Under the pieces are notes generated by a model. It did no database searches. It worked only from the letters and a program-made list of their open reading frames with translations, and was not told the origin of the DNA. From the NCBI GenBank assembly GCA_963792895.1, contig CAWBYA010000008.1, positions 373,495 to 437,494 of the forward strand: a DNA stretch of 64,000 bases, in the 5' to 3' direction. The translations under genes were made by a program, and so were the position numbers. This stretch comes from an uncultured Acidimicrobiia bacterium (lineage in GTDB: Bacteria > Actinomycetota > Acidimicrobiia > Spongiisociales > UBA5794). How positions within the stretch are numbered: position 1 is the stretch's first letter; the number at the start of each line of letters is the position of its first letter. This document shows, piece by piece, positions 14,272 to 40,733 of the stretch.

Positions 14272-15012
14272 TCACTCCCACCGGAACACGACGAGTGCGG
14301 CCACAACGGCGCCCACACCGAGGGCGCCGAGCACGAACCAGGAGGATCCGGGGTCGAGACGGAGCCAGCCGTCGTGCATCGCACGGATCGCATACGGAAG
14401 CGGCGTGGCGTCCCCGACCCGTCGCATCGCGGCGCTGAGGACCTCGGGCGGCGGGCCGGCGCCGCCGAGGAACAACATCACGAACCACACCATGATGCCG
14501 AGGCCCTGCGCGGCGCGAGCCGTCGGCAACACAGCCCCGAGCAGCACGCCCAGCGCTCCGAAGACCACGGAGATCAACCCGAATCCGGCGATGACGAGCC
14601 CGACCGACTGCGGTGCCGAGAAGTCGTAGAGCAGTGCGGCCGCGACGAGGAGGACGACGGCCGATGCGGTGGCGATCACCACGGCCACGGCGATCTCGGC
14701 AACGACGACAGTCCACGTCGGAACACCCGACGCGTGGAGACGCCGCAGCACGCCGCGCTCCCGATTCCCGGCGAGCTGGGTGGGGACGCTGACGATCCCA
14801 ACCGACGCGACCACAAGGGCGAGGTATGCAGGCACGTAGTAGGACATCGCGCCGACACCGCGGTACACGTCGGATTCAGACTCGTTGCCGAAGACTCCAC
14901 CGAGGATGACGAGGATCACGGCCGGCAACGCCAGCGCGAAGATCAACGTGAGCGGCTCACGCACCAACAGCTTCAGCTCAACAGTGGCGAGCTTGCGGAC
15001 GGTGCGCATCAT
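14272..15012 (-). CDS. ABC-2 family transporter permease
   Basis: 246 aa, six predicted TM helices, translationally coupled (4-nt overlap) to upstream ABC ATPase. Confidence 0.7.
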   Translation of the reverse strand: MMRTVRKLATVELKLLVREPLTLIFALALPAVILVILGGVFGNESESDVYRGVGAMSYYVPAYLALVVASVGIVSVPTQLAGNRERGVLRRLHASGVPTWTVVVAEIAVAVVIATASAVVLLVAAALLYDFSAPQSVGLVIAGFGLISVVFGALGVLLGAVLPTARAAQGLGIMVWFVMLFLGGAGPPPEVLSAAMRRVGDATPLPYAIRAMHDGWLRLDPGSSWFVLGALGVGAVVAALVVFRWE

Positions 15013-18918: not shown

Positions 18919-19629
18919 ATGAACACGGACCACGTCGCAATCGTCACCGGTGGTACCGGCGCCCTCGGGCAGTCTCTGGTGCCCGTCCTCTTGAGGCGCA
19001 ACTTCAAGGTGGCGGTGACCTACCTCGTACCTGAAGAAGCTCGCGCCCTGGAGTCGAGTCTCGACGTCGACGAAGACCGCATGGTGCTGCGCAGGGTCGA
19101 CTGCACGGATGCCGAAGCGGTCAATCGATTCATGAAGGAGACCGTCGAAGCCTTCGGGCACATCAACGTTGTGTGTGCGCTGGTCGGCGGCTGGGCCGGC
19201 GGTCGCGATGTCGGAGAGACCGACGACGTGCGGTTCGATCGTATGCTCGACATCAATCTCCGCTCTACCTTCTATACGGTACGCGCTGCGATACCCCACG
19301 TCCTCGAGGCCGACTGGGGCCGCATCATCGCCATGGGCAGCCGTGCCGCCGTCGACACCCCGGCGGGTCAAGCGGCCTTCAACGTCGCAAAAGCCGGGGT
19401 GGTCACCCTGATCAAGAGCTTGGCCAACGAGCTCGACGACACGAACGTCACCGCCAACGTCATCCTCCCCGCAGTGATCGACACAGAAGACACCCGTGCC
19501 GCGCTGCCTTACGCCGACTACGTACGGTGGCCCAAACCGGCCGAGATCGCCAGCGTGGTGGACTTCCTCGCCAGCCCGCAGTCGGCGGTCATCAACGGTG
19601 CGGCGATACCCGTCTATGGTCAGAGCTGA
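18919..19629 (+). CDS. SDR-family oxidoreductase
   Basis: HVAIVTGGTGALGQSLV Rossmann motif, catalytic Y-x3-K region (FNVAKAG), 236 aa. Confidence 0.75.
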   Translation: MNTDHVAIVTGGTGALGQSLVPVLLRRNFKVAVTYLVPEEARALESSLDVDEDRMVLRRVDCTDAEAVNRFMKETVEAFGHINVVCALVGGWAGGRDVGETDDVRFDRMLDINLRSTFYTVRAAIPHVLEADWGRIIAMGSRAAVDTPAGQAAFNVAKAGVVTLIKSLANELDDTNVTANVILPAVIDTEDTRAALPYADYVRWPKPAEIASVVDFLASPQSAVINGAAIPVYGQS

Positions 19630-19681: not shown

Positions 19682-20434
19682 ATGACAGGTAGGGATGGAT
19701 TCAGCTCGGACGATCTACTGCGCCAGGCGCGTGAGGCGATCGCACGCAAGGACGTCACGGAGAACGATGACGAGCGAGCGGCCTCGTCTCGAACGGAGCC
19801 GACAGCGCCACCGCCCGATCCCTCCCCGACTCTTCCGCGGTTCGAGACCGTCGCGGCGGAGCCGTATGAGCCCCACGAAGAGCCGGATCGCCTCGTGTCC
19901 GAGCGCCCCCGGCCCGCCACCGACGGCATGGTCAGACCGACCGATCGTATCGCTACGGGTGTTCCCCCATCTACGAAACGCCGCCCGGCGGTGGCGGTTG
20001 GAATCGCGATCGCCATCTTCTCGGTCGGCTTTGCGGTCTTCGTCGCCGGGCTCGTCGATGACTCCACCGACGTCCAGAACGTCGGTGTCGGGACATGTCT
20101 CAACGATCCGGGGGGCGAGGTCGTAACCGGGATCGACCCGATCCCGTGTGACGAGCCCCATCAATTCGAGATGATCGGATCCGTGAAGATTCCCGGCGAC
20201 GCCTTCCCCGGGAACGACGAGTCGTTCGACCTCGCCATCGATCGTTGTGTACCGATGTTCGAGGAATACGTCGGCATCGCCTACCAGGACTCGCTCTGGT
20301 GGCTCAATGCCTTCACCCCGACTGCCGAAGGGTGGGAAAGCGGCGACCGCATCGCCAACTGTCTCGTCTTCCAGTTCGACGACGACCGCAACATCGTCTC
20401 GGTGACGGGCTCGGCCAGAGGCGACGGACGCTGA
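19682..20434 (+). CDS. septum-formation-family membrane-anchored protein
   Basis: 250 aa; cytoplasmic N-terminus, single TM (VAVGIAIAIFSVGFAVFVAGLV), extracellular domain with conserved Cys pattern (CDEPHQFE...CVPMFEEY...NCLVFQFDD). Confidence 0.6.
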   Translation: MTGRDGFSSDDLLRQAREAIARKDVTENDDERAASSRTEPTAPPPDPSPTLPRFETVAAEPYEPHEEPDRLVSERPRPATDGMVRPTDRIATGVPPSTKRRPAVAVGIAIAIFSVGFAVFVAGLVDDSTDVQNVGVGTCLNDPGGEVVTGIDPIPCDEPHQFEMIGSVKIPGDAFPGNDESFDLAIDRCVPMFEEYVGIAYQDSLWWLNAFTPTAEGWESGDRIANCLVFQFDDDRNIVSVTGSARGDGR

Positions 20435-20505
20435 CAGGCACGGCAGACCCGCCGCGCCGCCGGGGCCGGACGTTCGTCACTGCGCTGGTCGTCGTCGTTG
20501 CGGCA

Positions 20506-20916
20506 GTGGTGGTGGCGATCGTCGTTGTGAGCTTGTTCGACCGATCAGCCTCTGCCCTGTCGCTGCGTCGAGGAGACTGTCTGCTCGATCCGGGGGCAGA
20601 TCGAGTTGTCGATGTCGACCGGGTCGCCTGTGACTCGCCGCACCAGTTCGAGGTCATCGGTTCGGTGAGCTTTCCCGGCGCGACGTTTCCGGGCGACGAG
20701 GCTCTCGTTGCGCAGGGACGAGCGGCATGCGAGCCCCTGTTCGTCGACTACGTGGGCCAGCCGTACGACACGTCGCCGTGGTTCGTCAATGTGTTCACGC
20801 CGACGGCCGAGGGGTGGGCGAATGGCGAGCGCAGCACCACGTGCCTCGTCTTCCAGTTCGACGAGGCCCTCGAGATTCGGACGGTCACGGGGTCTGCAGC
20901 CGGGTCGGGGCGCTAG
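20506..20916 (+). CDS. septum-formation-family protein, tandem paralog (start uncertain)
   Basis: same domain pattern as upstream gene (CDSPHQFEVIGSV...CEPLFVDYVG...TCLVFQFDE); reading frame open from 20431 but no ATG/GTG/TTG before the TM segment, first GTG at 20506. Confidence 0.45.
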   Translation: MVVAIVVVSLFDRSASALSLRRGDCLLDPGADRVVDVDRVACDSPHQFEVIGSVSFPGATFPGDEALVAQGRAACEPLFVDYVGQPYDTSPWFVNVFTPTAEGWANGERSTTCLVFQFDEALEIRTVTGSAAGSGR

Positions 20917-20934
20917 GAGGGTGCTGCCCGGCGG

Positions 20935-21450
20935 CTACTTCTTCTTCTTCTTGCTCTTCTTGCTCGACCCGGAGCTCTCGCTCTCGATCTTGTACCGAGT
21001 CTCCACCGTCCCGATGGTCGAGCCGTCATCGCTGAACTCGGTGTAAGTGACCTTGATCTCCTCGAAGCTGTTGGCGATGACCACGGTCGGCGGTCCGGCT
21101 TCGTCGTTGCCCGATGCGTTGATCTGGTACGACGTCACCATGACGTTCGTGAGCTCGTATGCGAGGTAGGTGACCCGGGTCCCGCCGTACGTGGCGGTCA
21201 GCTCGACATGGAGCTTGGGGACGACCTCGCCCTTCACGCACTTTTCCTGCAGCTTGGGCGACGCCTTGTCGTAGTCCATGGTGAGCACCATGTCATCGAC
21301 GACGGCAGCCCCGCGCCTGCGGCTTTGCCCGGTTGCGCCACCTCCCGGCCGGCGCACCCCCCAGTCGAGGGCGAGGAGATCGATCCACTTGTCGTGGTGA
21401 GCGTCCCGCGACTCCCCATCGACACCGTCGTAGTTCGCAAAGATGGCCAT
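20935..21450 (-). CDS. hcp: Hcp-family protein (type VI secretion tube protein homolog) with Ser/Lys-rich C-terminal tail
   Basis: MAIFANYDGVDGESRDAHHDKWIDLLALDWG...KASPKLQEKCVKGEVVPKLHVELTATYGG...YLAYELTNVMVTSYQ...VIANSFEEIKVTYTEF aligns along its length with Hcp1 hallmarks (e.g. P. aeruginosa Hcp1); tail SESSGSSKKSKKKKK; GC about 60% vs about 70% flanks; alternative upstream start at 21486. Confidence 0.8.
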   Translation of the reverse strand: MAIFANYDGVDGESRDAHHDKWIDLLALDWGVRRPGGGATGQSRRRGAAVVDDMVLTMDYDKASPKLQEKCVKGEVVPKLHVELTATYGGTRVTYLAYELTNVMVTSYQINASGNDEAGPPTVVIANSFEEIKVTYTEFSDDGSTIGTVETRYKIESESSGSSKKSKKKKK

Positions 21451-22096
21451 CGCACGCTCCGTGTTTGCAGCATCGAACCGAACCAATCGCTCCAGAACCT
21501 ATCGCAACTGGGATGGATGTGCGGCCCGGGCCCACGCTGCAACCGGTGCCGTCGAGGCTGAAAGGTCGACTTCGTCGTCGGTCATCTCCGGCGCCATGCT
21601 GATTCCGGAATGCCCTCTGCGGTTGCGGGCCCCGCCGGCACGCTCAACGGCTACCTCGGCATATCCGAGTCCCATTCCTCGACGCCCAAGACCAACACCG
21701 GTCGATGCACTCATGGACGTGGGCGGCATCCCCGTTTGCAGACTCTGTGATCTGCTCGCTACAAAGCTCGAGTCGTCGGTGACCGTGGTGCGCTCGGGGA
21801 TTGCTTCGACCTGCTCACGATCGAGCGCGACACCCGGTGATGGAAGGCGCCCACGGCGGCACCCCTTCTTCACCTCGCGGTTGGACAGCCGGTCTGAGGC
21901 GGACGCATGACCTTGGCTCAGTCGCCACTGTCGGCAGCCGTCGGTCGGCCGCATGGAACGCGCCGAGTAGTCGACAAGCCGCGCCTGACCAAAGCGCGAG
22001 GTGCCGTTTTTCCGATACTTCACAGGACGTGCGTTCGTGTCGGAGATGCGGTTGATCGGCGTGGTCGGAGGGCCGGCGGCGCCTAGAGTCCGATGC

Positions 22097-22780
22097 ATGG
22101 ACATCCTTCTCATCGCTGGGTTGTGGCTACCCCGCTCGATTTGGGCCGACGTCTGTGGTGAGCTGGAGAGCCGTGGGCACCGGCCGTTGCCGGTGGCTCT
22201 GCCCGGTGTCGATGACGCCTCGACCACGGCGACGTTGGCCGATCAGGTGACGGCCGTCCTGGCTGAGGTCGACGATGCCGATCGACCGATGGTCGTCGGG
22301 CACTCGGCGGCTTGCACTCTGGCGTGGATGATCGCCGACCGGCGGCCGGACACGATCAGTCGGGTCGTGCTGGTGGGCGGATTCCCGTCTTCCCAGGGCG
22401 AGGCCTACGCCGACATCTTCCCAACCGTCGACGGCGCAATGGCCTTCCCGGGTTGGGCACCGTTCGAGGGGGCCGACTCGGGTGACCTCGGCGACGCCGA
22501 TCGGGAACGCATCGCCTCGGAAGCCGTTCCCGTTCCTGAGGGTGTCGCCAAGGGGATCGTCCGGTTGAGCGACGATCGACGCTTCGACGTTCCCGTGCTC
22601 CTGGTCTGCCCCGAGTTCAGCCCCGACCAGGCCAAGGCGTGGATGGACGCCGGCGATGTCCCCGAGCTCAGCCGGGCCAGGCAAGTCGCGTTCGTCGACA
22701 TCGACTCGGGACACTGGCCGATGGTCAGTCAACCCGCTGAACTGGCCCGGATCCTCGACGATGCGACCAAAGAAGGCTGA
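22097..22780 (+). CDS. alpha/beta-hydrolase-fold protein
   Basis: 227 aa; MVVGHSAAC nucleophile elbow (G-H-S-A-A), C-terminal D/H candidates; typical size. Confidence 0.6.
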   Translation: MDILLIAGLWLPRSIWADVCGELESRGHRPLPVALPGVDDASTTATLADQVTAVLAEVDDADRPMVVGHSAACTLAWMIADRRPDTISRVVLVGGFPSSQGEAYADIFPTVDGAMAFPGWAPFEGADSGDLGDADRERIASEAVPVPEGVAKGIVRLSDDRRFDVPVLLVCPEFSPDQAKAWMDAGDVPELSRARQVAFVDIDSGHWPMVSQPAELARILDDATKEG

Positions 22781-22795
22781 ACCCCGAAGACCGGT

Positions 22796-22957
22796 GTGGT
22801 CCGCGAACTCGACGCGTCGGCCTGGGACGGCTTCGCTGAGCTCGTCGAGCGCAACAATCGGATCTTCGGGGGTTGCTGGTGTGTCGGCTGGCACCCCGAG
22901 TGCGGGCAGCAAGGGATCAACCATCGCGAGGTCAAGGAACACCGGCCCCCGCGCTGA
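22796..22957 (+). pseudogene. GNAT N-acetyltransferase N-terminal fragment (partial duplication of downstream gene)
   Basis: GTG-initiated 54-codon ORF VVRELDASAWDGFAELVERNNRIFGGCWCVGWH parallels IRELTPDLWPALEDLFDTSGAVGRCWCMYWR of the gene at 23061; lacks acetyl-CoA-binding core. Confidence 0.35.
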
Positions 22958-23060
22958 GTGAACGCGCGCAGGTCGGTCACCGCTCCTCAAAGTGCCGTTG
23001 GAGCGCACTCGGCGAGCGCCACAGAGCGGGTCTAGCTTATGGAACGCAAAGGGAGCCTTC

Positions 23061-23621
23061 ATGGACCGTGTCATTCGTGAACTCACCCCAGATCTGTGGC
23101 CTGCGCTTGAGGACCTGTTCGACACGTCCGGCGCCGTCGGCCGTTGCTGGTGCATGTACTGGCGTATCGGTAGCCGATATCGCGACGTGGACCGCGACGC
23201 CAACAAGGCAGCGTTCCGCAAGGTCTTGGACGACGGACCGCCCCCGGGTTTGCTCGCGTTCGATGACGATGTCGCCGTTGGGTGGTGCCAGCTCACGCCT
23301 CGCGATGCGTTGCCGTGGCTGGATCGCACGTGGCGACTCAGGCGTGTTGACGAGGTCCCAGTGTGGTCGATCTCATGCTTCTACGTGCGAAAGGGTTACC
23401 GCAGACAGCGTGTCGCGAGTGCCATGATCACTGCGGCAGTGGATGCCGCCAAGCGCGCCGGCGCCCCAGCGGTCGAGGCGTATCCGCTTGACGCAGACTT
23501 GACACCGAGCACCTCGCACACCGGGTACGCAACGACGTTCAAGCGCGCTGGGTTCAAGATCGTTGGTCGACATGTGCCTTCTCGCCCGATCATGCGCTAC
23601 GACTTCCGGCACGCAGACTGA
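23061..23621 (+). CDS. GNAT-family N-acetyltransferase
   Basis: 186 aa; start atg 23061 (MDRVIRELTP); core VRKGYRRQRVASAMITAAVDAAKRAGAPAVEAYP resembles GNAT motif A. Confidence 0.65.
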   Translation: MDRVIRELTPDLWPALEDLFDTSGAVGRCWCMYWRIGSRYRDVDRDANKAAFRKVLDDGPPPGLLAFDDDVAVGWCQLTPRDALPWLDRTWRLRRVDEVPVWSISCFYVRKGYRRQRVASAMITAAVDAAKRAGAPAVEAYPLDADLTPSTSHTGYATTFKRAGFKIVGRHVPSRPIMRYDFRHAD

Positions 23622-23849
23622 ACAGCATTCAGGCCGCACAGAACACTCACCACCCAGGGCGTTATCGAGCACACACGAGCGTCCGGGATGCGGCATATCA
23701 TGCAATCGGCGCCACCGCGTCGATACGTGGAAGGCGACGGGAGCGGTGGGTGCTCAGCGTTTCGAGACCGAGGGTGTCTCGGTCCACGTCTGCTCGAAAG
23801 TGCGCTGTTGGGCTGCTCGGTGCTGGATCTCGGCGAGCCGCCGCCACAC

Positions 23850-24275
23850 GTAACCGTCGCCCTCCCGGTGTTCGTCTTCGACACGCTGGCACGACACTGC
23901 GATGACCACCCACCCGCCGGCGACATGGTGTGGACCACACAGCGAGGCGACCTCCTGCAACGCGGCTCCTTCGGCCGCATCTGGAGGAGAGCGGTCGCCG
24001 AGTCGGTGGGGCCACCCTGTCGCGTTCACGATCTTCGACACACCCACGCTGCATGGCTGATTGCCGACGGAGAGCACCCGAAGGCGATCCAGGCGCGGCT
24101 GGGGCACAGCTCGATCACCGTGACGATGGACCGCTACGGACACCTGATGGACGGGCTCGATGACGAGATCGCCGCGCATCTGGACACTCGTGCCGCTGCT
24201 GCCGCGCCCCCACCGCGCCCCGAGGCCCGAGCACCAGCAGAGCCGACCGACCCCCAAACACGTCGAAACCCCTGA
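23850..24275 (+). pseudogene. tyrosine recombinase/phage integrase, C-terminal catalytic fragment only
   Basis: RVHDLRHTHAAWLIADGEHPKAIQARLGHSSITVTMDRYGHLM = integrase box II (HxxR ... Y); no N-terminal SAM/core-binding or box I region upstream; ends 86 nt from tRNA-Glu 3-prime end. Confidence 0.6.
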
Positions 24276-24295
24276 CGCACAGGGTTCTCGATGAT

Positions 24296-24326
24296 GCAGA
24301 AACCCCCGCCTGGCGGGGGTTTCTGC
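24296..24326. terminator. perfect 15-bp inverted repeat hairpin between convergent integrase remnant and tRNA-Glu
   Basis: gcagaaacccccgcc t ggcgggggtttctgc; GC-rich stem, no U-tract (common in high-GC actinobacteria). Confidence 0.4.
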
Positions 24327-24360
24327 CAACGGACTCGCCGAAGGCGAGTACGGTAGGACG

Positions 24361-24433
24361 TAGCCCCGACCGGATTTGAACCGGCGTTACCGCCTTGAGA
24401 GGGCGGCGTCCTAGGCCCCTAGACGACGGGGCC
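24361..24433 (-). tRNA. tRNA-Glu (anticodon CTC)
   Basis: reverse complement folds as cloverleaf: acceptor GGCCCCG/CGGGGCT, D-arm GTCT..GGAC, anticodon stem CCGCC/GGCGG with loop CTCTCAA, T-arm GCCGG TTCAAAT CCGGT; no encoded CCA. Confidence 0.85.
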
Positions 24434-24501
24434 AGGGGAGACGGATATTAACCGCCGACGAGATGCCAACTGCGCAGCTGTGCCGCCGGCGCCCCGCGGA
24501 G

Positions 24502-24573
24502 CTCGGGGGGGAGGACTCGAACCCCCAACGACAGGACCAGAACCTGCTGTGTTACCGATTACACCACCCCCGA
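24502..24573 (-). tRNA. tRNA-Gln (anticodon CTG)
   Basis: reverse complement: acceptor TCGGGGG/CCCCCGA (U1-A72 typical of tRNA-Gln), D-arm GTGT..ACAC, anticodon stem GCAGG/CCTGT loop TTCTGGT, T-loop TTCGAGT. Confidence 0.85.
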
Positions 24574-24661
24574 AGGGCGGTGCGGAAGGATAGGGAGACG
24601 GGTGAAAAAGGCCAAGCCGCCCCATTGCGTTGTCCCCGGACCCGGGTACGCTGCCCTTGGG

Positions 24662-26044
24662 ATGCAGGGCAGGAAACGCCTCGGGGGGATCATCGCAGCA
24701 GCAGCGCTGCTCGCAGCCGCGTGCTCTTCTCCCGCTGCGACCACCGCAGCCGGAACAGCCGGCCCAAGCCCCGAACCCGGCGCAACGACGACCGTTGCCA
24801 TCTCTTCAGATGGTGCGACGACGCCACAGCAACCCCCTTCGTGTGACGCGACGCCGGACCTCGCCGGCGGCGATCCGCAGCCGTGGCATACCGACGTCAC
24901 CGTCGAGGCCACGGCTTTCCAGGAACCGGGTGCCGATGGGCCAGGTATCCGGGCCGTCGTGTATCCGCACCCGGATTATCGCGGCAAGCCGTGGTCGCAG
25001 TGGGGGCAGGGAGTCGTTCTCGCCGACGGCCGGTTCCTGTCCGCGATCGGCGACCACTTCGGGGCAGACGGGAACTCGTTCATCTACGAGTACGACCCTG
25101 CGACGAGCACGCTCGTCCAGATCGCAGACGTCCTTTCGCTCGTGGACCACACGGCCGGCGAGTGGGGCTACGGCAAGATCCACGCCCAGATGGTGGAACT
25201 CGGCTGCGGCGAGGTCTACCTGTCGACCTATTGGGGCTCTCGCCGCAACCTCACGTACACCGACGAGTACCAGGGCGATCTCCTCTTTCGCCTCGACCCT
25301 GCGGGCCGCACGAGCGCAGAGGTCGGCGTGATCCTGCCTGAGCACGGCGTCGCGTCGATGGCCGGCTGGTCGCACGGCGGTCTGCTCTACGCAGAGGCCG
25401 CCGACCCGTTCGGCCAGAAGACGGGCTCGTTCGTGGTCCTCGATGCCGCCACTGGTGGGCAGGTGTTCGAGGATGCCGACGACGCCCACGGCGGCTACCG
25501 CGCCGTCGCCGTCGACGCTGCAGGTCGGGCGTACATCACCTGGAACGAGACCTCCCTCGCCCGCTACGACCCGGATACCAACACCCTCACACCCCTCGAC
25601 GTGACGATGCCGGGCGGGATACTACGCGCCGTGACGGTTCCCGACGCAAACGGCACGATCTTCGCTGCGACCAGAGATCCAGCCGTGTTCTTCAGCCTCA
25701 CGGAAGACGGCACGATCACCGAGCTCGGCCCGGCTCGCGGCTACACCACTTCGATCGCTCTCTCCCCAGACGGGAGCCGCTTCTACTACGTGCCAGACGC
25801 CCACGGTGGTGCGTGGCGTGAAGGGACGCCGCTCATCGCCGTAGACACCACCACCGGTGAGGAAGCGGTCATCGCCGAGCTCCAGCCGATCGTCGGGGAA
25901 GCGCTCGGGCTCAAGCTCGGCGGAACCTACAACGTCGCCGTCGACGAGTCGGGCAGCCGGATCTATGTCGGCCTCAACGCCGGCGAGCTGGCGGGCGGGG
26001 AGAGCTTCGGCGAGGTCGTGCTCGTCGTCGTCACCCTGCCGTGA
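24662..26044 (+). CDS. lipoprotein with predicted beta-propeller domain
   Basis: 460 aa; signal peptide ending in lipobox LAAAC; Ala/Thr/Pro-rich linker; repeated beta-strand-rich segments (YEYDPATSTL..., YITWNETSLARYDPDTNTL...); 4-nt overlap with downstream gene. Confidence 0.5.
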   Translation: MQGRKRLGGIIAAAALLAAACSSPAATTAAGTAGPSPEPGATTTVAISSDGATTPQQPPSCDATPDLAGGDPQPWHTDVTVEATAFQEPGADGPGIRAVVYPHPDYRGKPWSQWGQGVVLADGRFLSAIGDHFGADGNSFIYEYDPATSTLVQIADVLSLVDHTAGEWGYGKIHAQMVELGCGEVYLSTYWGSRRNLTYTDEYQGDLLFRLDPAGRTSAEVGVILPEHGVASMAGWSHGGLLYAEAADPFGQKTGSFVVLDAATGGQVFEDADDAHGGYRAVAVDAAGRAYITWNETSLARYDPDTNTLTPLDVTMPGGILRAVTVPDANGTIFAATRDPAVFFSLTEDGTITELGPARGYTTSIALSPDGSRFYYVPDAHGGAWREGTPLIAVDTTTGEEAVIAELQPIVGEALGLKLGGTYNVAVDESGSRIYVGLNAGELAGGESFGEVVLVVVTLP

Positions 26045-27741
26045 AGCGGCTCGCGGCCGTCCTGGCGCTGTTGCTCGTGGCTGCAGCTTGTTCGGGCGCC
26101 ACCGCCGACACCGTCGTTCCCGCACGTGAGTCGGCTCCCACGAATGATGCATCGGGGACGGCCGCCACTGCCCCGCCGGCAGCAGGCTCGGAAACGACGG
26201 GCGACGGCATCACCTGCTGGGCCGCCCCGGCAGCCGGGGGCTCGCCGGGCACGACCTTCGAGGACGTCACCGCCGCATGGGGTCTCATCGATCCGCTCAC
26301 CGGGATGCGCGGCCACGCTGCCGCATGGGGTGAGGTCGGCGCCGCCCACAGAGCCGACCTCTTCGTCGGCACCTTCGCCACTGCCCGCTCCGACATCTAC
26401 GTCGAGAGGGGTGCGACCGGCCCATCACCCGACCGGCTCCTGACCGACGACGGTGAGGGCTTCGCCATGGACTCCGGGTTTCCCCAGTCGTTCGGACGGA
26501 CCAGCGGCGCTGCATTCGCCGACCTCGACGGGGACGGCGACCACGATCTCGTCGTATCCCGCAACGCAGCGGAGCGAGATCAAGAGGGCGCGCCTACCCA
26601 AGTGCTGGAGAACACCGGATCGGGCTTTGCGATCGTCCCGGATGCCGGCATCGACCCGACGCTCGGCGGAAGATCCGTTGGGGTGCTCGACGTCGACGAA
26701 GACGGGCTGCTCGACCTCGTGATCATCGAAGACCGCTACCGCGGCGGATCCAGCCGCCTCTATCGCAACCTCGGCGACCTTCGTTTCGAAGACGCGACGA
26801 CGGCTCTCGGGCTCGGTGACGACGTCGAAGGGCTTGGAATCGCAACAGGCGATCTCAACAACGATGGCCACACCGATGTCTTCGTCGCCGGATCGAACCG
26901 GCTGTTCGTCGGAACGGGCTCGCGGCTGGCCGAAGCCGACGGCGCAGCGCTCCAGTGGGAGACGTTCGGGAACGAGGACGACGTGGCCGGAGCTGCCATC
27001 GCCGACGTCAACCGCGACGGATGGCTCGACCTCGTCGTCGGGCACCACTACAACAGCACTCTCAGCCAGGGCCAGCAGGTCCCGGTGCGGCTGTACCTCA
27101 ATCGCACCCGCGACGCCGGGGCGGCTCCTGTCCTCGAAGACGTGACTGAAGCGGCGGGCTTGATCGGGCTCCCGACGAAGGCGCCCCACGTCGAGTTGGC
27201 CGACCTCGACAACGACGGATGGCCCGACATCGTGACGACGGCGTCCGCCGACGACGGCATGCGGCCCGCCGTGTTCCGCCACCTCGGCCTCGTCGACGGC
27301 GTCCCCCGTTTCGAGGCGCCATCCGGGCTCGGGGCCGCCCAATACTGGGTGACCGGACCCACCGCCGACGTCGACCACGACGGCCGGCTCGACATCCTCC
27401 TCGTCGAGTGGGAGCCCTCGCTCCCGTCTCTGCTCCTCCACAACACCTCGGCGTCCGGCCATTGGCTGGAAGTGTCAGTCGGCCCCGAATTCGGCGGTGG
27501 CGTCGGCACCCGTGTCGATATCTATGCGGCCGGCGGAGCCGGCGACTCTGCGGCGCTCCTGGGCAGCCGCGAGATCGTTGCATCCCTCGGCTACACGGCG
27601 GGCGTACTCCAGGTCGCGCATTTCGGATTGGGAGACGCAACGACGGTCGACGTCATCGTCACGCCACCCCGAGGTGCCGAGCCCGTCACCGTCGACGGCG
27701 TCGCCGCAGACCAGCACATCCGGCTCCCCGGCGGCTGCTGA
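26041..27741 (+). CDS. FG-GAP/VCBS-repeat lipoprotein with C-terminal ASPIC/UnbV domain (CRTAC1-like)
   Basis: 566 aa; lipobox LLVAAAC; six D-x-D/N-x-DG-x-xD calcium-type repeats (DLDGDGDHDLVVS, DVDEDGLLDLVII, DLNNDGHTDVFVAG, DVNRDGWLDLVVG, DLDNDGWPDIVTT, DVDHDGRLDILLV); C-terminal RVDIYAAGG...HFGLGDATTVD. Confidence 0.7.
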   Translation: MKRLAAVLALLLVAAACSGATADTVVPARESAPTNDASGTAATAPPAAGSETTGDGITCWAAPAAGGSPGTTFEDVTAAWGLIDPLTGMRGHAAAWGEVGAAHRADLFVGTFATARSDIYVERGATGPSPDRLLTDDGEGFAMDSGFPQSFGRTSGAAFADLDGDGDHDLVVSRNAAERDQEGAPTQVLENTGSGFAIVPDAGIDPTLGGRSVGVLDVDEDGLLDLVIIEDRYRGGSSRLYRNLGDLRFEDATTALGLGDDVEGLGIATGDLNNDGHTDVFVAGSNRLFVGTGSRLAEADGAALQWETFGNEDDVAGAAIADVNRDGWLDLVVGHHYNSTLSQGQQVPVRLYLNRTRDAGAAPVLEDVTEAAGLIGLPTKAPHVELADLDNDGWPDIVTTASADDGMRPAVFRHLGLVDGVPRFEAPSGLGAAQYWVTGPTADVDHDGRLDILLVEWEPSLPSLLLHNTSASGHWLEVSVGPEFGGGVGTRVDIYAAGGAGDSAALLGSREIVASLGYTAGVLQVAHFGLGDATTVDVIVTPPRGAEPVTVDGVAADQHIRLPGGC

Positions 27742-27912
27742 CCACCCTCGTCGAAGATGCCACCCTCCGCCAGTCGGGCGGCGGCGTCCCTCCTCAGGCC
27801 CAAAACGCCCCACGGCAAGCATGAACGGTCGAGCTTTGCTGCCACTTTGCGCTGCCGCGCGCCGATGCCGTGCCGGGGTCGGCGATGCCTCCCCCGGCAC
27901 AGCTCGATGGGC

Positions 27913-28734
27913 TCAGGCCTCGGCGACCGGCATCCGGATCTCGGTGACCGGAGGTCCCGGCTCGTCTGGGCCCGTCAGGTAGATCTCGCGCACCGGGCCT
28001 GCGATGTGATAGCCGTGCTCTTCGATCCAGGACCCCAGTGCCTGGTACGTGCCGGCGAGCTCCTCGTACGGCCCGACATGTACGATCACTGCCGCGAGAC
28101 CGCCCTCCAGGGTCCGCACGTCGAGCTTGCGGCTCCCGGGGGTCGAGAGCGGCCCGCCGTCGTGCGCACCAACCGGACACACCACCTCGACGTCGATGCT
28201 CTCCGGGGTGAACTCGAGATCGTGGTACACCATGACCGGGGGGCCGACGATCTGGAGGCCGTTGGCGAACACCCCGCCGATCGCATCCTGAATCAGCTCC
28301 GCAATCCCTTCCGTGCTCGGCACGACCTCCCGCACCGCCAAGCCGGTGAGCGGCTCGATGGTCTTGACGATGACTTCCTTGTCGGGCATGGCGCCCTCCT
28401 TCTCGATCAGCCGGAGACGGGCCTCCACTCGGGCGAGCCTCGCCTGATCCTCGGCAACCCTCCGTCCGATCTCCGCGCGCTTGAGCACGAGCATGCCGCG
28501 CAACTCGGCGGGGCCGAGGTGCTCAGCCAGCACCCCTTTGATCTCGTCGAGGGACAGCCCGAGGTCTTTGAGCGCCAGGATCCGGTTGAGGACGGGGAGT
28601 TGGGCCCCTGTGTAGTACCGGTACCCGGACCAAGCGTCCACCACGGCGGGCGCGAAGATTCCGATGGAGTCGTAGTACCGCAGCGCAGATACCGGCACCA
28701 TCGAAACTTGCGAGAACTCGCCGATCTTGAACAC
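27913..28734 (-). CDS. MerR-family transcriptional regulator with GyrI-like effector-binding domain
   Basis: N-terminal HTH FKIGEFSQVSMVPVSALRYYDSIGI, coiled-coil linker, C-terminal GyrI-like domain; GTG start at 28734 preferred. Confidence 0.7.
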   Translation of the reverse strand: MFKIGEFSQVSMVPVSALRYYDSIGIFAPAVVDAWSGYRYYTGAQLPVLNRILALKDLGLSLDEIKGVLAEHLGPAELRGMLVLKRAEIGRRVAEDQARLARVEARLRLIEKEGAMPDKEVIVKTIEPLTGLAVREVVPSTEGIAELIQDAIGGVFANGLQIVGPPVMVYHDLEFTPESIDVEVVCPVGAHDGGPLSTPGSRKLDVRTLEGGLAAVIVHVGPYEELAGTYQALGSWIEEHGYHIAGPVREIYLTGPDEPGPPVTEIRMPVAEA

Positions 28735-28857
28735 GCACCGCCTCCGATCACTCAATCTGCTGAAGGCCCACCGAGTGTGCACCCTCGAGTAGGTCGAGAG
28801 TCAAGAGGCTTTGGGCTCAGTCGCCCCGATCCTCGCTCGCCGGAGGCGTGAAGGCGT

Positions 28858-30300
28858 TCAGAGCCGGTCGAGCGCCGTGCCGATGCGCTCCAAGGTCGTC
28901 TCCCTGCCAACCGCCGCCAACGACTCGAACAGAGGCGGGCTGATGGATGAGCCGGTGACGGCGACTCGCAGCGGCTGGAACCCCTTCCGGGCAGACAGCT
29001 CGAGGTCGTCGAGCACTCCACGCAGCGTTCCTTCGATCGCTTCCGTATGCCACTCGTCCAGGGCTGCGAGACGCTCGCCCGCCGTCGCCAGCAAGCCGCC
29101 GACCTCCGGCTTCGTCATCACCTTGTCCCAGGAAGCATCGTCGTATTCGATCGCTCCGAACAGGAACCGCACCTGCGGGCCGATCTCGGTGAGCAACTTC
29201 GTGCGCTCTTGCACGAGCGGTGCGATCTCACCGAACACGGCCTGCTCCGCATCATCGAGATCGCGGCCGAGGGTGGCCGCCACGAAGGGCATCGCATGAG
29301 CCACGAAGTCGGCGACGCTCAACTCGCGGATGTAGACGCCGTTCATCCACTCGAGCTTCGTCACATCGAAGACTGCCGGGCTCTTCGAGACCGCGCCGAG
29401 GTCGAAACGCTCCGCCATCGTCGCCAGCGACACGATCTCCTCGTCCTCCCCCGGAGACCACGACAGGATCGCCAGGTAATTGCGGACCGCCTCGGCAAGG
29501 TACCCGTCTTCACGGTAGGCGGAGATGGCCGTGTGACCGTGCCGCTTCGACAGCTTGGCGCCATCGGGCCCCATGAGAAGCGGCAAGTGCGCGTATGTCG
29601 GTAACGCGTTGCCAAGCGCCTGGGTAAGCAGGATGTGCTTGGGCGTGGACGACAGCAAGTCCTCGCCGCGCACGACGTGAGTGATCTCGAAGTCGACATC
29701 GTCGACGGTTGAGGCGAGGTGGTAGGTCGGGGACCCATCCGACCGCAAGATGACGAAGTCGTCCACCTGCACGTGGTCGAAACGCACTTCGCCGCGCACC
29801 ACGTCGGTGAACACCGTCTCCCCCGGCCTCGGCACGGCGAACCTGATCGGGGCGGGCTCACCTTCGGAAACGCGCCGCTCGGTCTCCTCGGCGGTCAACC
29901 GCATGCGACCGTCGTAGGCAGGCGGCCTCCCGGCGGCCTGCGCCTCCTTGCGGAACGCATCGAGCTGATCGGGAGTCTCGAACGAGTAGTAGGCCAGCCC
30001 CTCCGCAACGAGGCGATGCGCCACGGTGCGATAGCGGTCCATCCGTCTGCTCTGCCGGTAGGGGTCGTGCGGGCCGCCGACGGCGATTCCTTCGTCCCAA
30101 TCGAGGCCGAGCCACTCCATACTGGCGAGGATGTCCGCGTAGTACTCGTCAGTCGATCGCTCCTGATCCGTGTCGTCGCTGCGCAGGATCATCGTTCCGC
30201 CGTTGCGCCGAGCGAACAGCCAGTTGTACAGCGCCGTCCGGCCACCGCCGACGTGGAGGAAGCCCGTTGGGGAGGGAGCGAAGCGCACACGCACGCTCAC
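28858..30300 (-). CDS. gltX: glutamate--tRNA ligase
   Basis: 480 aa; RVRFAPSPTGFLHVGGGRTALYNWLFAR (HIGH region), KLSKRHG (KMSKS motif). Confidence 0.9.
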   Translation of the reverse strand: MSVRVRFAPSPTGFLHVGGGRTALYNWLFARRNGGTMILRSDDTDQERSTDEYYADILASMEWLGLDWDEGIAVGGPHDPYRQSRRMDRYRTVAHRLVAEGLAYYSFETPDQLDAFRKEAQAAGRPPAYDGRMRLTAEETERRVSEGEPAPIRFAVPRPGETVFTDVVRGEVRFDHVQVDDFVILRSDGSPTYHLASTVDDVDFEITHVVRGEDLLSSTPKHILLTQALGNALPTYAHLPLLMGPDGAKLSKRHGHTAISAYREDGYLAEAVRNYLAILSWSPGEDEEIVSLATMAERFDLGAVSKSPAVFDVTKLEWMNGVYIRELSVADFVAHAMPFVAATLGRDLDDAEQAVFGEIAPLVQERTKLLTEIGPQVRFLFGAIEYDDASWDKVMTKPEVGGLLATAGERLAALDEWHTEAIEGTLRGVLDDLELSARKGFQPLRVAVTGSSISPPLFESLAAVGRETTLERIGTALDRL

Positions 30301-37470: not shown

Positions 37471-37529
37471 GGCCGAGAGGGAGCGGCGGAATCGACCGTT
37501 CCCGTCACGCGCCGTATGCTCGCGGCCCT

Positions 37530-38045
37530 ATGGAGGGGTGGTTCTTCGTCGTCGCTGCGCTCTTGATCGGCGCCGGCTTCCTGAAGGTTCGGGACCCTGC
37601 GCCCACGCAGGGCGCCCTCGCCGCGGCATCACTGCCGTCGGGGGCATGGCCGGCGCTCACCCTCGGTGTCGGCGAGATCGTCGTCGGCTCGTACGGGCTG
37701 CTCGCCGGCGGACGGCTCGGCGGTGTCGCGGTTGCCGCCATCTACGGAGGATTCGCGGCTTTCGTTCTCGTCGCGCTGCGACGGAAGCTGCCACTGCAAT
37801 CGTGCGGCTGTTTCGGCAAGGACGACACCCCCCCGTCGCCGGTCCATGCCGTGACCAACGTTCTCGCCGCCGTGGGCGCCATCGGGTACGCACTCACGTC
37901 TGCGCCGTCCCTGCCGGAAGTGATCGCCTCCCAGCCGGGATGGGGTTTCCCCTACCTCGTGTTCCTCGCAGTGGGCGTCTACGCGCTCTACCTGATGCTC
38001 GCCGAGCTGCCCCGGCTTCGCCTGATCGTCCGGGGGCCGGCGTGA
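37530..38045 (+). CDS. MauE-like (methylamine-utilisation protein E family) membrane protein
   Basis: 171 aa, four TM helices, conserved CGCFG motif between TM2 and TM3. Confidence 0.65.
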   Translation: MEGWFFVVAALLIGAGFLKVRDPAPTQGALAAASLPSGAWPALTLGVGEIVVGSYGLLAGGRLGGVAVAAIYGGFAAFVLVALRRKLPLQSCGCFGKDDTPPSPVHAVTNVLAAVGAIGYALTSAPSLPEVIASQPGWGFPYLVFLAVGVYALYLMLAELPRLRLIVRGPA

Positions 38046-38866
38046 GCACCCGGCTGGTTGAAGCAACCGCCGGCTTCCTCGGTCGAAGGACCAGCAGGCG
38101 CGGCTTCCTGCGTCGCGCGGCCATCGTCGGCTCGGCGCTCGCTGCCGCCCCCGCAGCGTATGTCCTCCGTCCGACCACCGCGTATTCGGCGATCGTCAAG
38201 ACCTGCAGCGACTGCCCGTCCGGATCGCGATGTTGCGGCGGATACACCGAGTTCTGCTGCGCCATGTCCGGGGTCAACACGTGCCCTCCGGGCAGTGTCA
38301 TCGCAGGCTGGTGGCGGGCCGAGGGCTCCGGCTACTGCGATGGCGGGTCCCGCTACTACATGGACTGCAACACCGCAGACTGCGGGGGCTGCGGCTGTGG
38401 GTATTCGGGCACGTGCTCGGACTCATGCGTCGACTGCAGCTGTGGATGCGCCAACAACGACTGCAACCTGAGGCAGGCGTGTTGTGTCCGGTTCCGGTAC
38501 GGCCAATGCAACCAGCACATCGAGTGCGTCGGCCCGATCATCTGCCGGGTCGTCACCTGCGTGCCGCCGTGGGAGTGGGATTCGTCGTGCTCGAAGGCCG
38601 ACGCCCGCGACGACAACACCCGATTCCACGATGCGGCATGTCTCCGGCCGTCGCTCGTGCGCCAGGCGTACCCCGGCGTCGTGTCGGGCGCCACCTTCGA
38701 GCTGCGCGAGTCACTCAGCACAGGCATCCCTACGGAGAAGTACGACTACGGGCTGCCGGGCGACATCCCAATCATGGCGGACTGGTCCGGCTCGGGCCTG
38801 GAGACGGCCGGACTGGTGCGGGGGCGCGCCATGGGGCCCTGGACGCTGGTGCGCTCACGTGGCTGA
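38042..38866 (+). CDS. Tat-exported cysteine-rich protein with C-terminal FG-GAP repeat (possibly 5-prime part of a longer frameshifted gene)
   Basis: GTG start overlapping mauE-like stop; twin-arginine signal SRRGFLRRAAIVGSALAAAPAAYV; 26 Cys in about 150 residues; C-terminal YDYGLPGDIPIMADWSGSG repeat. Confidence 0.5.
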   Translation: MSTRLVEATAGFLGRRTSRRGFLRRAAIVGSALAAAPAAYVLRPTTAYSAIVKTCSDCPSGSRCCGGYTEFCCAMSGVNTCPPGSVIAGWWRAEGSGYCDGGSRYYMDCNTADCGGCGCGYSGTCSDSCVDCSCGCANNDCNLRQACCVRFRYGQCNQHIECVGPIICRVVTCVPPWEWDSSCSKADARDDNTRFHDAACLRPSLVRQAYPGVVSGATFELRESLSTGIPTEKYDYGLPGDIPIMADWSGSGLETAGLVRGRAMGPWTLVRSRG

Positions 38867-38874
38867 TCCGCCAA

Positions 38875-39363
38875 GTGCCCGGGCCAGGCGACCCCGACCT
38901 CGTCGTGGAGTACGGAACCGCAGGCGACGTGCCCGTCGCCGGTGATTGGAATGGCGACGGCGTCGACACGATCGGGGTCGTCCGGGGCAACCGCTGGCTG
39001 CTGAGCAACCACAACGCCGGGGGCACGGCAGACATCGATATCGTGTTCGGCGAGCCCGGCGACATCCCTGTGGCGGGCGACTGGAACGGCGACGGTGTCG
39101 ATACGCCGGGCGTAGTCCGGGGAACACGGTGGATACTGCTCAACGGCTTCGACCCAGCGGGCCCTCGGGTCGAATTCGACTTTGGGCCTGCCGACGGCGT
39201 CCCCATCGTCGGCGACTGGACCGGGGCAGGGCGCCATCTGCCGGGGCGCTTCGTCGCCGGGTCTTGGCAGCTTCGGCTGTCGCTGTCGGACGGACCGGCG
39301 AACAGCACCTTTTCGTTCGGCGACCCGAACGGGGTGCCGGTGGTGTGGGGCCGGGTGCCATGA
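38875..39363 (+). CDS. FG-GAP repeat protein (likely continuation of preceding gene across a 1-nt frameshift)
   Basis: three tandem units GD-x-PVAGDWNGDGVDT-x-GVVRG-x-RW; no signal peptide of its own; first in-frame GTG at 38875. Confidence 0.45.
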   Translation: MPGPGDPDLVVEYGTAGDVPVAGDWNGDGVDTIGVVRGNRWLLSNHNAGGTADIDIVFGEPGDIPVAGDWNGDGVDTPGVVRGTRWILLNGFDPAGPRVEFDFGPADGVPIVGDWTGAGRHLPGRFVAGSWQLRLSLSDGPANSTFSFGDPNGVPVVWGRVP

Positions 39364-40070
39364 CCGCTCTCGTCGTGTTGGAAGCGGTCGTGATCGTGCT
39401 GCTCGTCGTGCTCGTCGCCGGGCTGCTGCGCAGCCACGCCGAGATTCTCCGCAGACTCCACGAGCTCGGCGCGGGCGAAGCCGAGCCAGACCAGGCTGCG
39501 GCGATGGTGGCCGCACCACGCGGCTCGCAGCCGCTCGCCGCCACCGAACTGGCCGGGGTCACGCCCGGCGGGGGCGCCGCTTCAGTTGCGCTTGCCGGGT
39601 CGCGCGGTCTGGTGCTCGTGACGTTCCTCACGTCCGGCTGCTCCTCGTGCCGTCTGTTGTGGCGCGGGCTCGCCAACCCGATTGCGATGCCGCGCAAAGA
39701 CATCCGCACCGTGGTCGTCACGAAAGGCCCAGAAGAGGAGAGCCCGGCCACGATCCGCAACCTCGCCCCTTCGGATGCGATCGTCATCATGTCCAGTCCT
39801 GCGTGGGATGCGTTCCGGGTGCCGGTCGCGCCCTATTTCGCCCTCGTCGACGCCGGGCGCGGCCATGTCATCGGCGAGGGTGCTGCGGGATCGTGGCCCC
39901 AAATCGCGGAACTCGCCGGACGAGCACTGGGTGACGCCACCGGCGATTCCCGTCTCCACGCCGGGACGGCACAACGTCTCGAGGACACCGACGAAGAGCT
40001 GCGCCGGGCCGGTGTCGAGCCCGGCGACCCGAGCTTGTGGGCGCCGCCATCGAACGGTGGTGGACGGTGA
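39360..40070 (+). CDS. TlpA/MauD-like membrane-anchored thioredoxin-fold protein
   Basis: N-terminal TM helix, redox motif LTSGCSSC, thioredoxin-fold spacing; ATG overlaps upstream stop (ATGA). Confidence 0.6.
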   Translation: MTALVVLEAVVIVLLVVLVAGLLRSHAEILRRLHELGAGEAEPDQAAAMVAAPRGSQPLAATELAGVTPGGGAASVALAGSRGLVLVTFLTSGCSSCRLLWRGLANPIAMPRKDIRTVVVTKGPEEESPATIRNLAPSDAIVIMSSPAWDAFRVPVAPYFALVDAGRGHVIGEGAAGSWPQIAELAGRALGDATGDSRLHAGTAQRLEDTDEELRRAGVEPGDPSLWAPPSNGGGR

Positions 40071-40144
40071 CGATCACATCGCTGGGAGTGCTCGTCGCGG
40101 TGTTCGCAGCACTCCGATCGCATTGGTCGCCGTGAGGGGAGTCG

Positions 40145-40729: not shown

Positions 40730-40733
40730 CGTG

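Follow-up and report, generated by a model that had tools for sequence, protein, structure and literature searches.

The closest described systems to the locus analysed here are the tRNA-gene islands and integrative elements of Actinomycetota with phage- or AICE-type tyrosine integrases (AICE, actinomycete integrative and conjugative element), among them temperate actinophages and AICE-type integrating plasmids such as those of Micromonospora. As in these, a tRNA gene has the integrase gene immediately at its 3′ end, the identity block (47 nt, seen in a sister locus, L091) runs from the anticodon stem-loop to the tRNA 3′ end, the tRNA would be regenerated on integration, and tandem accretion and presence/absence variation occur among relatives. 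Among annotated integrases the nearest likewise come from Gordonia phage Finkle (32% identity across 90% of the length) and from the Micromonospora rosaria plasmid NC_006910 (29%). Unlike these systems, the present islet has no replication, transfer or phage structural genes, its integrase is reduced to the last 140 codons, no distal att copy accompanies it and its cargo is a patchwork. No described element was found for Acidimicrobiia or for this integrase subfamily.

Two further systems are relevant to the cargo. The Hcp protein resembles T6SS Hcp/TssD and the "orphan hcp" islands of T6SS-positive Gram-negatives in its full-domain PF05638 match, its 67–72% identity and its matches to Hcp1 structures, and differs from them in its Acidimicrobiia host, the absence of any T6SS gene within 10 kb and a Lys-rich tail. 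The hydrolase resembles that of an unnamed two-gene hydrolase-GNAT cassette of soil and sediment metagenomes, from which the locus departs in having a GNAT of another family behind a partner GNAT that breaks off after about 50 codons.

The window, the whole stretch of 64,000 nt that was analysed, comes from an uncultured Acidimicrobiia bacterium (GCA_963792895.1, contig CAWBYA010000008.1, positions 373,495–437,494 of the forward strand). The parts that a first-pass annotation had listed for the islet at 20935–24433 (Hcp, alpha/beta hydrolase, GNAT fragment, full GNAT, integrase remnant, hairpin and tRNA-Glu(CTC)) are all present, and the locus is laid out as follows.

20464..20916, + strand: second Septum_form gene (Sept2; PF13845), with which the conserved backbone on the left ends and beyond which the variable slot begins
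20917..20934: left junction, 18 nt separating the converging Sept2 and Hcp stop codons (direct reading)
20935..21450, − strand: solitary Hcp (TssD family), 171 aa, PF05638, with Lys-rich C-terminal tail SSKKSKKKKK
21451..22096: spacer of 646 bp, from which the Hcp and hydrolase genes diverge
22097..22780, + strand: alpha/beta hydrolase, intact, first gene of a hydrolase-GNAT pair (PF12697, E 5e-14)
22796..22957, + strand: GNAT fragment, truncated 5′ end (~50 codons; 53-codon ORF) of the hydrolase's partner GNAT
23061..23621, + strand: full GNAT acetyltransferase, intact (full-length Acetyltransf_1 match, PF00583, E 2e-10)
23622..23852: 231 nt from the GNAT stop to the integrase truncation point, supplying the ATG and first 55, unrelated codons of ORF 23688–24275
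23853..24275, + strand: tyrosine-integrase remnant, last 140 of ~382 codons, within ORF 23688–24275
24262..24352: from the integrase stop codon to the tRNA, three hairpins (24262–24292, 24296–24326, 24330–24352)
24360..24433, − strand: tRNA-Glu(CTC), intact (ARAGORN; Rfam 57.8 bits)
24501..24573, − strand: tRNA-Gln(CTG), backbone partner of tRNA-Glu (ARAGORN/Rfam)

Three of the ORFs are intact (Hcp, hydrolase and second GNAT), and the earlier description of a degraded islet holds for the first GNAT and the integrase only. Pfam searches of all islet ORFs returned Hcp, hydrolase, GNAT and integrase domains, and no phage structural or lysis, replication or FtsK-like transfer genes; Rfam found nothing besides the two tRNAs over 19.5–24.7 kb, and a promoter and terminator scan gave no signal exceeding shuffles. 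The left junction has no att-like sequence and no match to the tRNA-Glu 3′ half. The 646-bp spacer has flat GC over codon positions, no Pfam match on its ORFs and no Rfam match, and the regions upstream of other tailed Hcp genes do not conserve it. We consider it probable that 20917–24359 represents what an integration hotspot at the 3′ end of tRNA-Glu(CTC) contains at present, a mosaic left after the decay of integrated DNA. As such the islet is a textbook case and not surprising, an ordinary tRNA islet in decay in which mobile DNA survives as a dead patchwork.

Integrase remnant, hairpins and attachment site

The integrase remnant is the 3′ part of a gene whose full-length orthologue occupies the same position in a related genome (L008). 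Homology to full-length integrases begins at about 23853 and covers residues 243–382 of the 382-aa L008 protein, and only residues 70–153 of ORF 23688–24275 match PF00589, at profile positions 82–168 of 172. HDLRHT, LGHSS and DRYGH are kept, providing the H-x-x-R, H and catalytic Y; the counterpart of residues 1–242, with the N-terminal domains and the box I arginine region (TGLRWGEL), is missing. The earlier reading of an intact box II (HDLRHT) with box I and the N-terminal domains lost agrees with both comparisons, and the remnant falls short of the complete catalytic set (R..K..HxxR..H/W..Y) with N-terminal DNA-binding domains. The stretch 23622–23852 has no homology to full-length integrases or to the slot of any relative, and ORFs of 23563–23853 have no Pfam match; an alignment of residues 3–55 of the ORF to the L008 integrase was rejected as not real, with only ~17% identity.

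The remnant's stop codon lies 84 nt from the tRNA-Glu 3′ end, rather than the 86 nt first given, placing a tyrosine integrase beside a tRNA 3′ end as in tRNA-targeted integrative elements. The interval had been described as a single perfect 15-bp hairpin. It contains three: an interrupted 5+5-bp stem across the integrase stop codon, a perfect stem of 14 bp closing a 3-nt loop (24296–24326) and a 7-bp stem (24333–24349), with fold z-scores for the region of −5.3 on the + strand and −7.2 on the − strand. L006 and L091 have the same hairpin module, apart from base differences in the two loops, and an equivalent hairpin stands beside the second integrase (int2) of a co-occurring strain (L003) and also in L025. 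The hairpins belong to the conserved integrase/att module, in which they probably terminate transcription from both sides.

Integrases of this type adjoin tRNA-Glu in L006, L008 and L091; the L006 orthologue, at the same position, is longer than the remnant. At the nucleotide level the remnant is 94.3% identical to L006 and 93.1% to L008, whereas backbone genes in the same genome comparisons are 70–80% identical (FAA 88%). Synonymous and non-synonymous codon differences stand at about 1:1 in the integrase module, against 2:1 to 4.5:1 in the backbone genes. The excess of integrase identity over backbone identity means that the module moved horizontally between species.

The attachment site is visible in the sister locus L091, where 47 nt of the tRNA-Glu 3′ end recur, displaced and without a mismatch, at ~14579–14625. 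The order there is the last ~87 nt of the same integrase, the same hairpins, the 47-nt fragment and 6 kb or more of other island DNA. At this copy ARAGORN makes no tRNA call, and the contig is not readable as far as the complete tRNA. The copy has been displaced by a newer island, and the 3′-terminal 47 nt of tRNA-Glu are the identity block, or att site, of the element family. An identity block from the anticodon stem-loop to the 3′ end is what Williams reportedly described in 2002 as the classic anticodon-loop type of tRNA site.

The window itself holds no such copy. A direct repeat of the tRNA-Glu 3′ end had been expected to the left of the islet, and none, whole or fragmentary, was detected there with a 22-mer at up to 3 mismatches; searches with all 16-mers of the tRNA 3′ half at up to 2 mismatches and by local alignment against 19.6–24.36 kb gave nothing above chance, and a general repeat search returned chance-level pairs and the Sept1/Sept2 paralogy only. 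The suggested GC-skew and k-mer comparisons revealed no anomaly either: tetranucleotide z stays below 2 over the islet, GC is 0.64–0.67 against 0.65–0.70 in the flanks, and GC skews carry no island signal. GC3 is mildly low only in the GNAT (0.73) and the integrase stump (0.75), with 0.80 in the hydrolase and 0.88 in Hcp.

The slot in related genomes and strains

In distant relatives within the Acidimicrobiia (L012, L018 and L019) gltX, tRNA-Gln and tRNA-Glu are followed after 300–580 bp by SDR, the gene to the left of the islet in the window, and the slot is nearly empty. In closer relatives Sept2 orthologues directly follow SDR and Sept1 (L091, L092, L093), and homology between the window and all relatives stops at the Sept2 stop codon. 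From there to tRNA-Glu the slot content differs in every lineage:

UBA6912 (two contigs, L092 and L006): 312-aa protein, ABM, TetR, 469-aa protein, integrase
L095/L096: two unrelated genes, no integrase
L091: toxin-antitoxin genes
L008: full integrase, SEC-C protein, another hydrolase, second recombinase

The gltX / tRNA-Gln / tRNA-Glu neighbourhood is therefore an integration hotspot, as had been proposed, with content varying at the same site among related genomes and down to the level of strains. Gene order across the slot is not shared with any relative in the synteny comparison that the first-pass annotation had called for. Its view of a decayed tRNA-targeted integrative element is upheld by this synteny, by the integrases of the same type, by the 47-nt copy in L091 and by a second integrase relic in L003. 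The islet thereby documents tRNA-Glu(CTC) downstream of gltX as a live integration hotspot in uncultured soil Acidimicrobiia, and the 47-nt att block together with a species-crossing integrase family should be useful for island annotation in a poorly known class.

Strain variation is provided by L003, a 448-kb contig of a co-occurring strain from a different sample, whose flanks are 99.5–99.7% identical to the window. Precisely at the end of the tRNA this strain has an additional 1647 bp, which hold a second integrase pseudogene (75% nucleotide identity to the remnant) and a transposase fragment, and this difference represents recent activity at the tRNA-Glu site. It is neither a simple insertion in L003 nor a simple deletion in the window, as the junction differs by 7 nt and retains no 47-nt copy. 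The history that fits best is integration, then insertion of the transposase gene (IS-like), then deletion in the L003 lineage.

The same contigs bear on whether the islet is a chimeric join made during metagenome assembly, which we regard as very improbable. The window, L002 (a 436-kb contig) and L003 agree at 99.5–99.7% across the islet, and the Hcp-Sept2 junction recurs in three short contigs from other sequencing runs. In favour of a chimera, L001, which carries an identical Hcp, switches within the hydrolase gene to unrelated, proteobacterial-looking DNA and is noisy; for these reasons that contig is itself probably the chimeric one. L001 was also set aside as evidence for an identical Hcp beside a "full-length integrase", the enzyme being of integron type and lying in the proteobacterial-looking DNA. 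The concordant contigs lead us to treat the islet as a real arrangement.

Origin of the cargo

The hydrolase has homologues at 80 metagenome loci (62–84% identity). In 28 of these the first 50 aa of the next gene are 58–78% identical to the GNAT fragment, and that gene is a full-length GNAT wherever the contig extends far enough. The fragment has no Pfam match by itself and shares just 31% identity with the N-terminal part of the neighbouring GNAT. It is the truncated partner of a widespread hydrolase-GNAT pair. The full GNAT belongs to another large family (5207 homologues, the best 120 of which, from several phyla, are 70–80% identical), and a homologue in the L008 genome lies ~750 kb from that genome's tRNA-Glu island with no integrase nearby.

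Hcp and the hydrolase are not linked to an integrase anywhere else examined. Hcp and this integrase type have no match in any of the 80 hydrolase loci, no tRNA was found in the 14 longer loci scanned, and none of six tailed-Hcp contexts shows linkage to other islet genes, a matching integrase or a tRNA-Glu slot. By these comparisons the cargo resolves into a mosaic of at least four pieces and not one element.

A single element bringing Hcp, hydrolase, both GNATs and integrase into tRNA-Glu, with only in-place decay since, which is the first-pass annotation taken literally, would account for all five features falling precisely into the interval from the last backbone gene to the tRNA, and for the absence of Hcp, hydrolase and GNATs from the slot in relatives. 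We nevertheless think it improbable: besides the unlinked distributions above and the distant GNAT homologue in the L008 genome, the hydrolase's conserved partner is cut after ~50 codons and abuts an unrelated GNAT, and GC3 spans 0.73 to 0.88 across the islet.

Slightly less credible still is that only the integrase stump is foreign, with Hcp, hydrolase and GNATs as older residents and the element's own cargo lost in the deletion that truncated the integrase. The GC3 values of Hcp, the highest in the neighbourhood, and of the hydrolase, which is backbone-like, fit this explanation, as do the frequency of tailed Hcp in housekeeping contexts of similar high-GC genomes and an integrase module clearly younger than the backbone. 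Against it, four related lineages each have other genes in the slot and none has Hcp, hydrolase or the GNATs, the slot is almost empty in distant relatives, and the truncated GNAT partner is a rearrangement within the supposed resident block.

Under the favoured reading of a mosaic left by decayed elements, an integrase of an actinophage- or AICE-like tyrosine family would have recombined the chromosomal gene with an attP carrying the final 47 nt of tRNA-Glu, which extend from its anticodon stem-loop to its 3′ end. Integration would regenerate the tRNA, place the integrase gene and its hairpin (terminator) module directly against it and leave a displaced 47-nt copy at the element's far end. 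The element would have reached the window lineage after its split from the nearest sampled species, and later deletions would have stripped away the first ~240 codons of the integrase, most of the cargo and the att copy at the far end, so that the remainder could no longer excise. What remains is the solitary Hcp, the 646-bp spacer, the hydrolase with its partner-GNAT stump, the second GNAT and the integrase stump. The hotspot, the integrase family, the 47-nt att block of the sister locus, the truncation and the mosaic make-up are shown directly; we infer that some or all of the cargo arrived by integrase-mediated events and not by other recombination at the slot. The missing distal att copy, the unremarkable composition and the lack of transfer, replication or phage genes that would tell the kind of element weigh against this reading, and for individual genes a loss in the relatives may formally explain the difference.

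A solitary, lysine-tailed Hcp

By sequence the Hcp protein is a member of its family, with a full-domain match to PF05638 (104 bits, cut-off 23.5, E 9e-30) and matches to solved Hcp1 structures in the PDB (E 1e-14 to 2e-16); its score against NCBIfam TIGR03344 is 49.8 bits, below the cut-off of 58.9. The first-pass annotation held that the element explains this gene, a view that draws on position only; codon use in Hcp is the most host-like in the neighbourhood, and its closest relatives have no matching integrase nearby.

Homologues number 556 (67–79% identity), and identity to 159-aa Hcp proteins inside complete T6SS clusters is 67–72%. The closest relatives stand alone in unrelated housekeeping contexts. 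Lys-tailed Hcp is solitary in six of six contexts, with no T6SS gene within ~10 kb here or in the five others; untailed relatives sit in T6SS clusters. To our knowledge, T6SS is not known in the class Acidimicrobiia, and a literature search returned nothing relevant on solitary or lysine-tailed Hcp in Actinobacteria or Acidimicrobiia.

We tentatively suggest, as a possibility short of an even chance, that the tailed Hcp is a domesticated lineage of high-GC, T6SS-less Acidimicrobiia-like bacteria, with a single origin from a T6SS tube, a poly-lysine tail, an always solitary gene, strong conservation, adapted codons and a role outside secretion. Within that reading, a cationic ring binding nucleic acid or anionic cell-envelope polymers is one possibility. 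If these genomes truly lack T6SS, a contractile-injection tube protein would have been recruited to a new role in Gram-positive-type bacteria, and this clade is the part that could matter more than the islet itself. The tail, 10–20 Lys-rich residues, is the mark of a clade that is nearly exclusive: a tree computed with the tail left out places all 27 tailed sequences in one group, which is why a single derivation from a T6SS tube protein is proposed, and identity within the clade is 72–79%.

Architecture and gene order of the islet

The islet lies in high-GC DNA (67% in the window) of an uncultured Acidimicrobiia bacterium. The GluRS encoded there shares 82% identity with its counterpart in the relative MAG UBA6912, with the following matches all from Acidimicrobiia. 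Every part named in the first-pass annotation is present by ORF listing, tRNA search and Pfam.

Features of the islet and its flank (window coordinates)
20935-21450, minus strand: Hcp (PF05638, 104 bits)
22097-22780, plus strand: alpha/beta hydrolase (ORF listing, Pfam)
22796-22957, plus strand: GNAT-like fragment, 53 codons
23061-23621, plus strand: complete GNAT
23688-24275, plus strand: integrase-stump ORF; match to the tyrosine-recombinase catalytic domain confined to the C-terminal part (profile positions 82-168 of 172)
24360-24433, minus strand: tRNA-Glu(CTC) (tRNA search)
24501-24573, minus strand: tRNA-Gln(CTG) (tRNA search)
28858-30300, minus strand: gltX

The 84 nt from the integrase stop to tRNA-Glu fold into three hairpins, one of them a perfect 14-bp stem, and this stretch has fold z-scores of -5.3 and -7.2. 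Against an assembly artefact, the islet arrangement is found again in two further long contigs, which come from two samples, and the junction between the second Septum_form gene and Hcp in three short contigs of separate runs.

Synteny is decisive among the tests that had been suggested. Distant Acidimicrobiia (L012, L018 and L019) have an SDR gene within 300-580 bp of tRNA-Glu and, beyond it, PIG-L and/or CofC and pyruvate kinase, the same as in the window, where the SDR gene (18919-19629) is 4.7 kb from tRNA-Glu; L026 has the same backbone without an SDR match. In the closer clade SDR is followed by one or two added Septum_form genes, and the slot between the second of these (20464-20916) and tRNA-Glu differs in content in every closer-clade lineage examined. 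For UBA6912 this slot is divided over two contigs (DKBA01000131 and DKBA01000135).

Content of the slot between the second Septum_form gene and tRNA-Glu
Window: Hcp, hydrolase, GNAT fragment, GNAT, integrase stump
UBA6912, contig L092: 312-aa protein, ABM, TetR, 469-aa protein
UBA6912, contig L006: integrase against the tRNA, box I still included
L095/L096: two unrelated genes, without integrase
L091 (sister lineage, ENA contig ERZ25039600:contig_72160): toxin-antitoxin genes
L008: full 382-aa integrase, SEC-C protein, different hydrolase, second recombinase

Because the slot differs by lineage, and Hcp and the window-type hydrolase and GNAT are absent from it in all compared lineages (UBA6912, L095/L096, L091, L008), the gene order with Hcp is not common to relatives; a common order is what the first-pass annotation would have read against recent acquisition.

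The tandem Septum_form (PF13845) genes at 19682-20916 have a 160-nt stretch in common at 71% identity and therefore arose by local duplication; there is a single copy in L095/L096, and the available DNA after SDR in distant relatives gives no match. Beyond the tRNAs as seen from the islet, in the interval up to gltX (24602-28782), lie genes for a 460-aa lipoprotein-like protein, an FG-GAP/ASPIC protein and a MerR-GyrI regulator. The tRNAs directly follow gltX in several more distant Acidimicrobiia (e.g. L011, L013, L018, L019, L026), the MerR gene is absent in L007, L008, L009, L014 and L095, and the three-gene block looks like an older, clade-specific insertion.

The distal att repeat proposed at roughly 19-22 kb did not materialize: the window holds no match to the tRNA-Glu 22-mer (≤3 mismatches) or to any 16-mer of the tRNA-Glu 3′ half (≤2 mismatches), and aligning the complete tRNA-Glu locally with the region gives at best a 10-nt chance match. 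Composition likewise carries no island signal, as GC, skews and tetranucleotide distance of the islet are all ordinary (z < 2); GC3 dips mildly in GNAT (0.73) and in the integrase stump (0.75) compared with backbone genes (0.81-0.86), and Hcp has the top value of all (0.88). The most deviant tetranucleotide composition of the window falls at 37500-41000 (z 2.6), where five long ORFs tested have no Pfam match and tandem repeats are absent; an SLH-domain protein follows at 40778-42229.

Integrase relics at tRNA-Glu

The integrase stump starts near 23853 and is equivalent to residues 243-382 of the integrase in L008. At the DNA level the stump is 94.3% identical to UBA6912 and 93.1% to L008, whereas identity to these genomes is 70-80% in backbone genes (gltX 78%, SDR 80%) and 88% in FAA. 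The stump has roughly as many synonymous as non-synonymous codon differences (11:12 and 14:13); backbone genes have 162:84 and 104:23. Being far more similar than the surrounding housekeeping genes, the integrase pseudogene, to judge from these identities, must have spread horizontally later than the split of the species. Its closest annotated counterparts are integrases of temperate actinophages (32%) and of a Micromonospora integrating plasmid (29%). Among the integrases of this type examined, only L008:16671-17819 is full length; there Cys replaces the catalytic Tyr (DRCGHL) and LGYS replaces LGHS, changes that could be inactivating mutations or long-read errors. Contig L001 was set aside as a source of a full-length integrase, being noisy and probably chimeric, with an integrase of integron type.

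In the sister lineage, L091:14415-14625 comprises the final ~87 nt of this integrase, its hairpins and then a perfect 47-nt copy of the 3′ end of tRNA-Glu, which spans the anticodon stem to the terminus and at which ARAGORN calls no tRNA. Past this copy lie at least 6 kb of other, toxin-antitoxin-rich island DNA, with the complete tRNA-Glu past the stretch read. A newer element integrating into the tRNA would carry the former 3′ end away along with the earlier relic, and this layout is the one expected of such an event. The co-occurring strain L003 matches the window at 99.5-99.7% in its flanks; flush with the tRNA-Glu 3′ end it carries 1647 additional bp (L003:5452-7098) in place of 7 nt (window 24353-24359). 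This DNA includes a transposase HTH fragment, its own hairpin, similar to that of locus L025, and a second, frameshifted integrase pseudogene, 75% identical to the stump in nucleotides and with a full catalytic domain once the frameshifts are bridged; no displaced tRNA copy is left. Therefore, from the L091 and L003 arrangements, the tRNA-Glu site has been hit repeatedly and recently. Together with the variable slot content, they give good support to the insertion hotspot of the first-pass annotation. The islet at that site is real and, as decayed tRNA-associated DNA goes, ordinary.

Contigs of several Acidimicrobiia MAGs (L006, L009, L011, L013, L023) end 0-740 bp past tRNA-Glu, consistent with strain-variable DNA at the site disrupting short-read assemblies.

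Mosaic cargo

A metagenome scan with the hydrolase gave 80 loci at 62-84% identity. Directly downstream in 28 of these (among L100-L179) is a gene whose first 50 residues are 58-78% identical to the window GNAT fragment and which encodes a full-length GNAT wherever the contig reaches far enough; the fragment is therefore what remains of the GNAT that usually accompanies the hydrolase. A duplicate of the neighbouring full GNAT is ruled out by an identity of only 31%. The hydrolase and its specific GNAT (22097-22957) form a conserved adjacent pair in many soil and sediment metagenomes.

No match to Hcp, this integrase type, Septum_form or SDR occurs near the 80 hydrolase loci, and the 14 longer ones scanned hold no tRNA. 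The second GNAT is one of a family with over 5000 members, the closest among the matches listed being 70-80% identical and spread across phyla; in the L008 genome about 750 kb separate its homologue from the tRNA-Glu locus. Neither the 646-bp spacer nor the 231 nt preceding the integrase stump has a match. The cargo is a mosaic, and since its parts lack linkage elsewhere, the link between integrase and Hcp is positional only. Thus, of the earlier proposal that a tRNA-targeted element explains Hcp, the hotspot and the integrase relic stand, and the connection to Hcp is presumptive. A single-element origin of the whole islet is improbable, given the truncated GNAT partner and the hydrolase loci free of Hcp and this integrase; older resident genes next to an unrelated integrase stump are about as improbable.

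A solitary Lys-tailed Hcp

Among the mosaic parts, Hcp is 67-79% identical to 556 database proteins. Two untailed 159-aa relatives (72% and 67% identity; L097, L099) sit inside complete T6SS clusters with TssC, TssE/F/G, ClpV, VgrG and DUF2169, and in one a PAAR-like gene, at a locus GC of 0.58. In contrast, the window Hcp and its nearest relatives carry a Lys-rich C-terminal tail of 10-20 residues, found in 27 of the 120 best matches of the 556, and tailed genes are solitary in all six contexts read (tailed loci: window, L004, L005, L086-L088, L098). A neighbour-joining tree with the tail left out places all 27 tailed proteins on one side of a split, with only two untailed ones there, so that the tailed homologues form a nearly exclusive clade. 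We found no literature on a Lys-tailed solitary Hcp, and this clade is the only islet element that might repay further work. Differing housekeeping genes surround the tailed genes, at a locus GC of 0.63-0.69; the host is an actinomycetote for the window and probably so for the other tailed-Hcp genomes.
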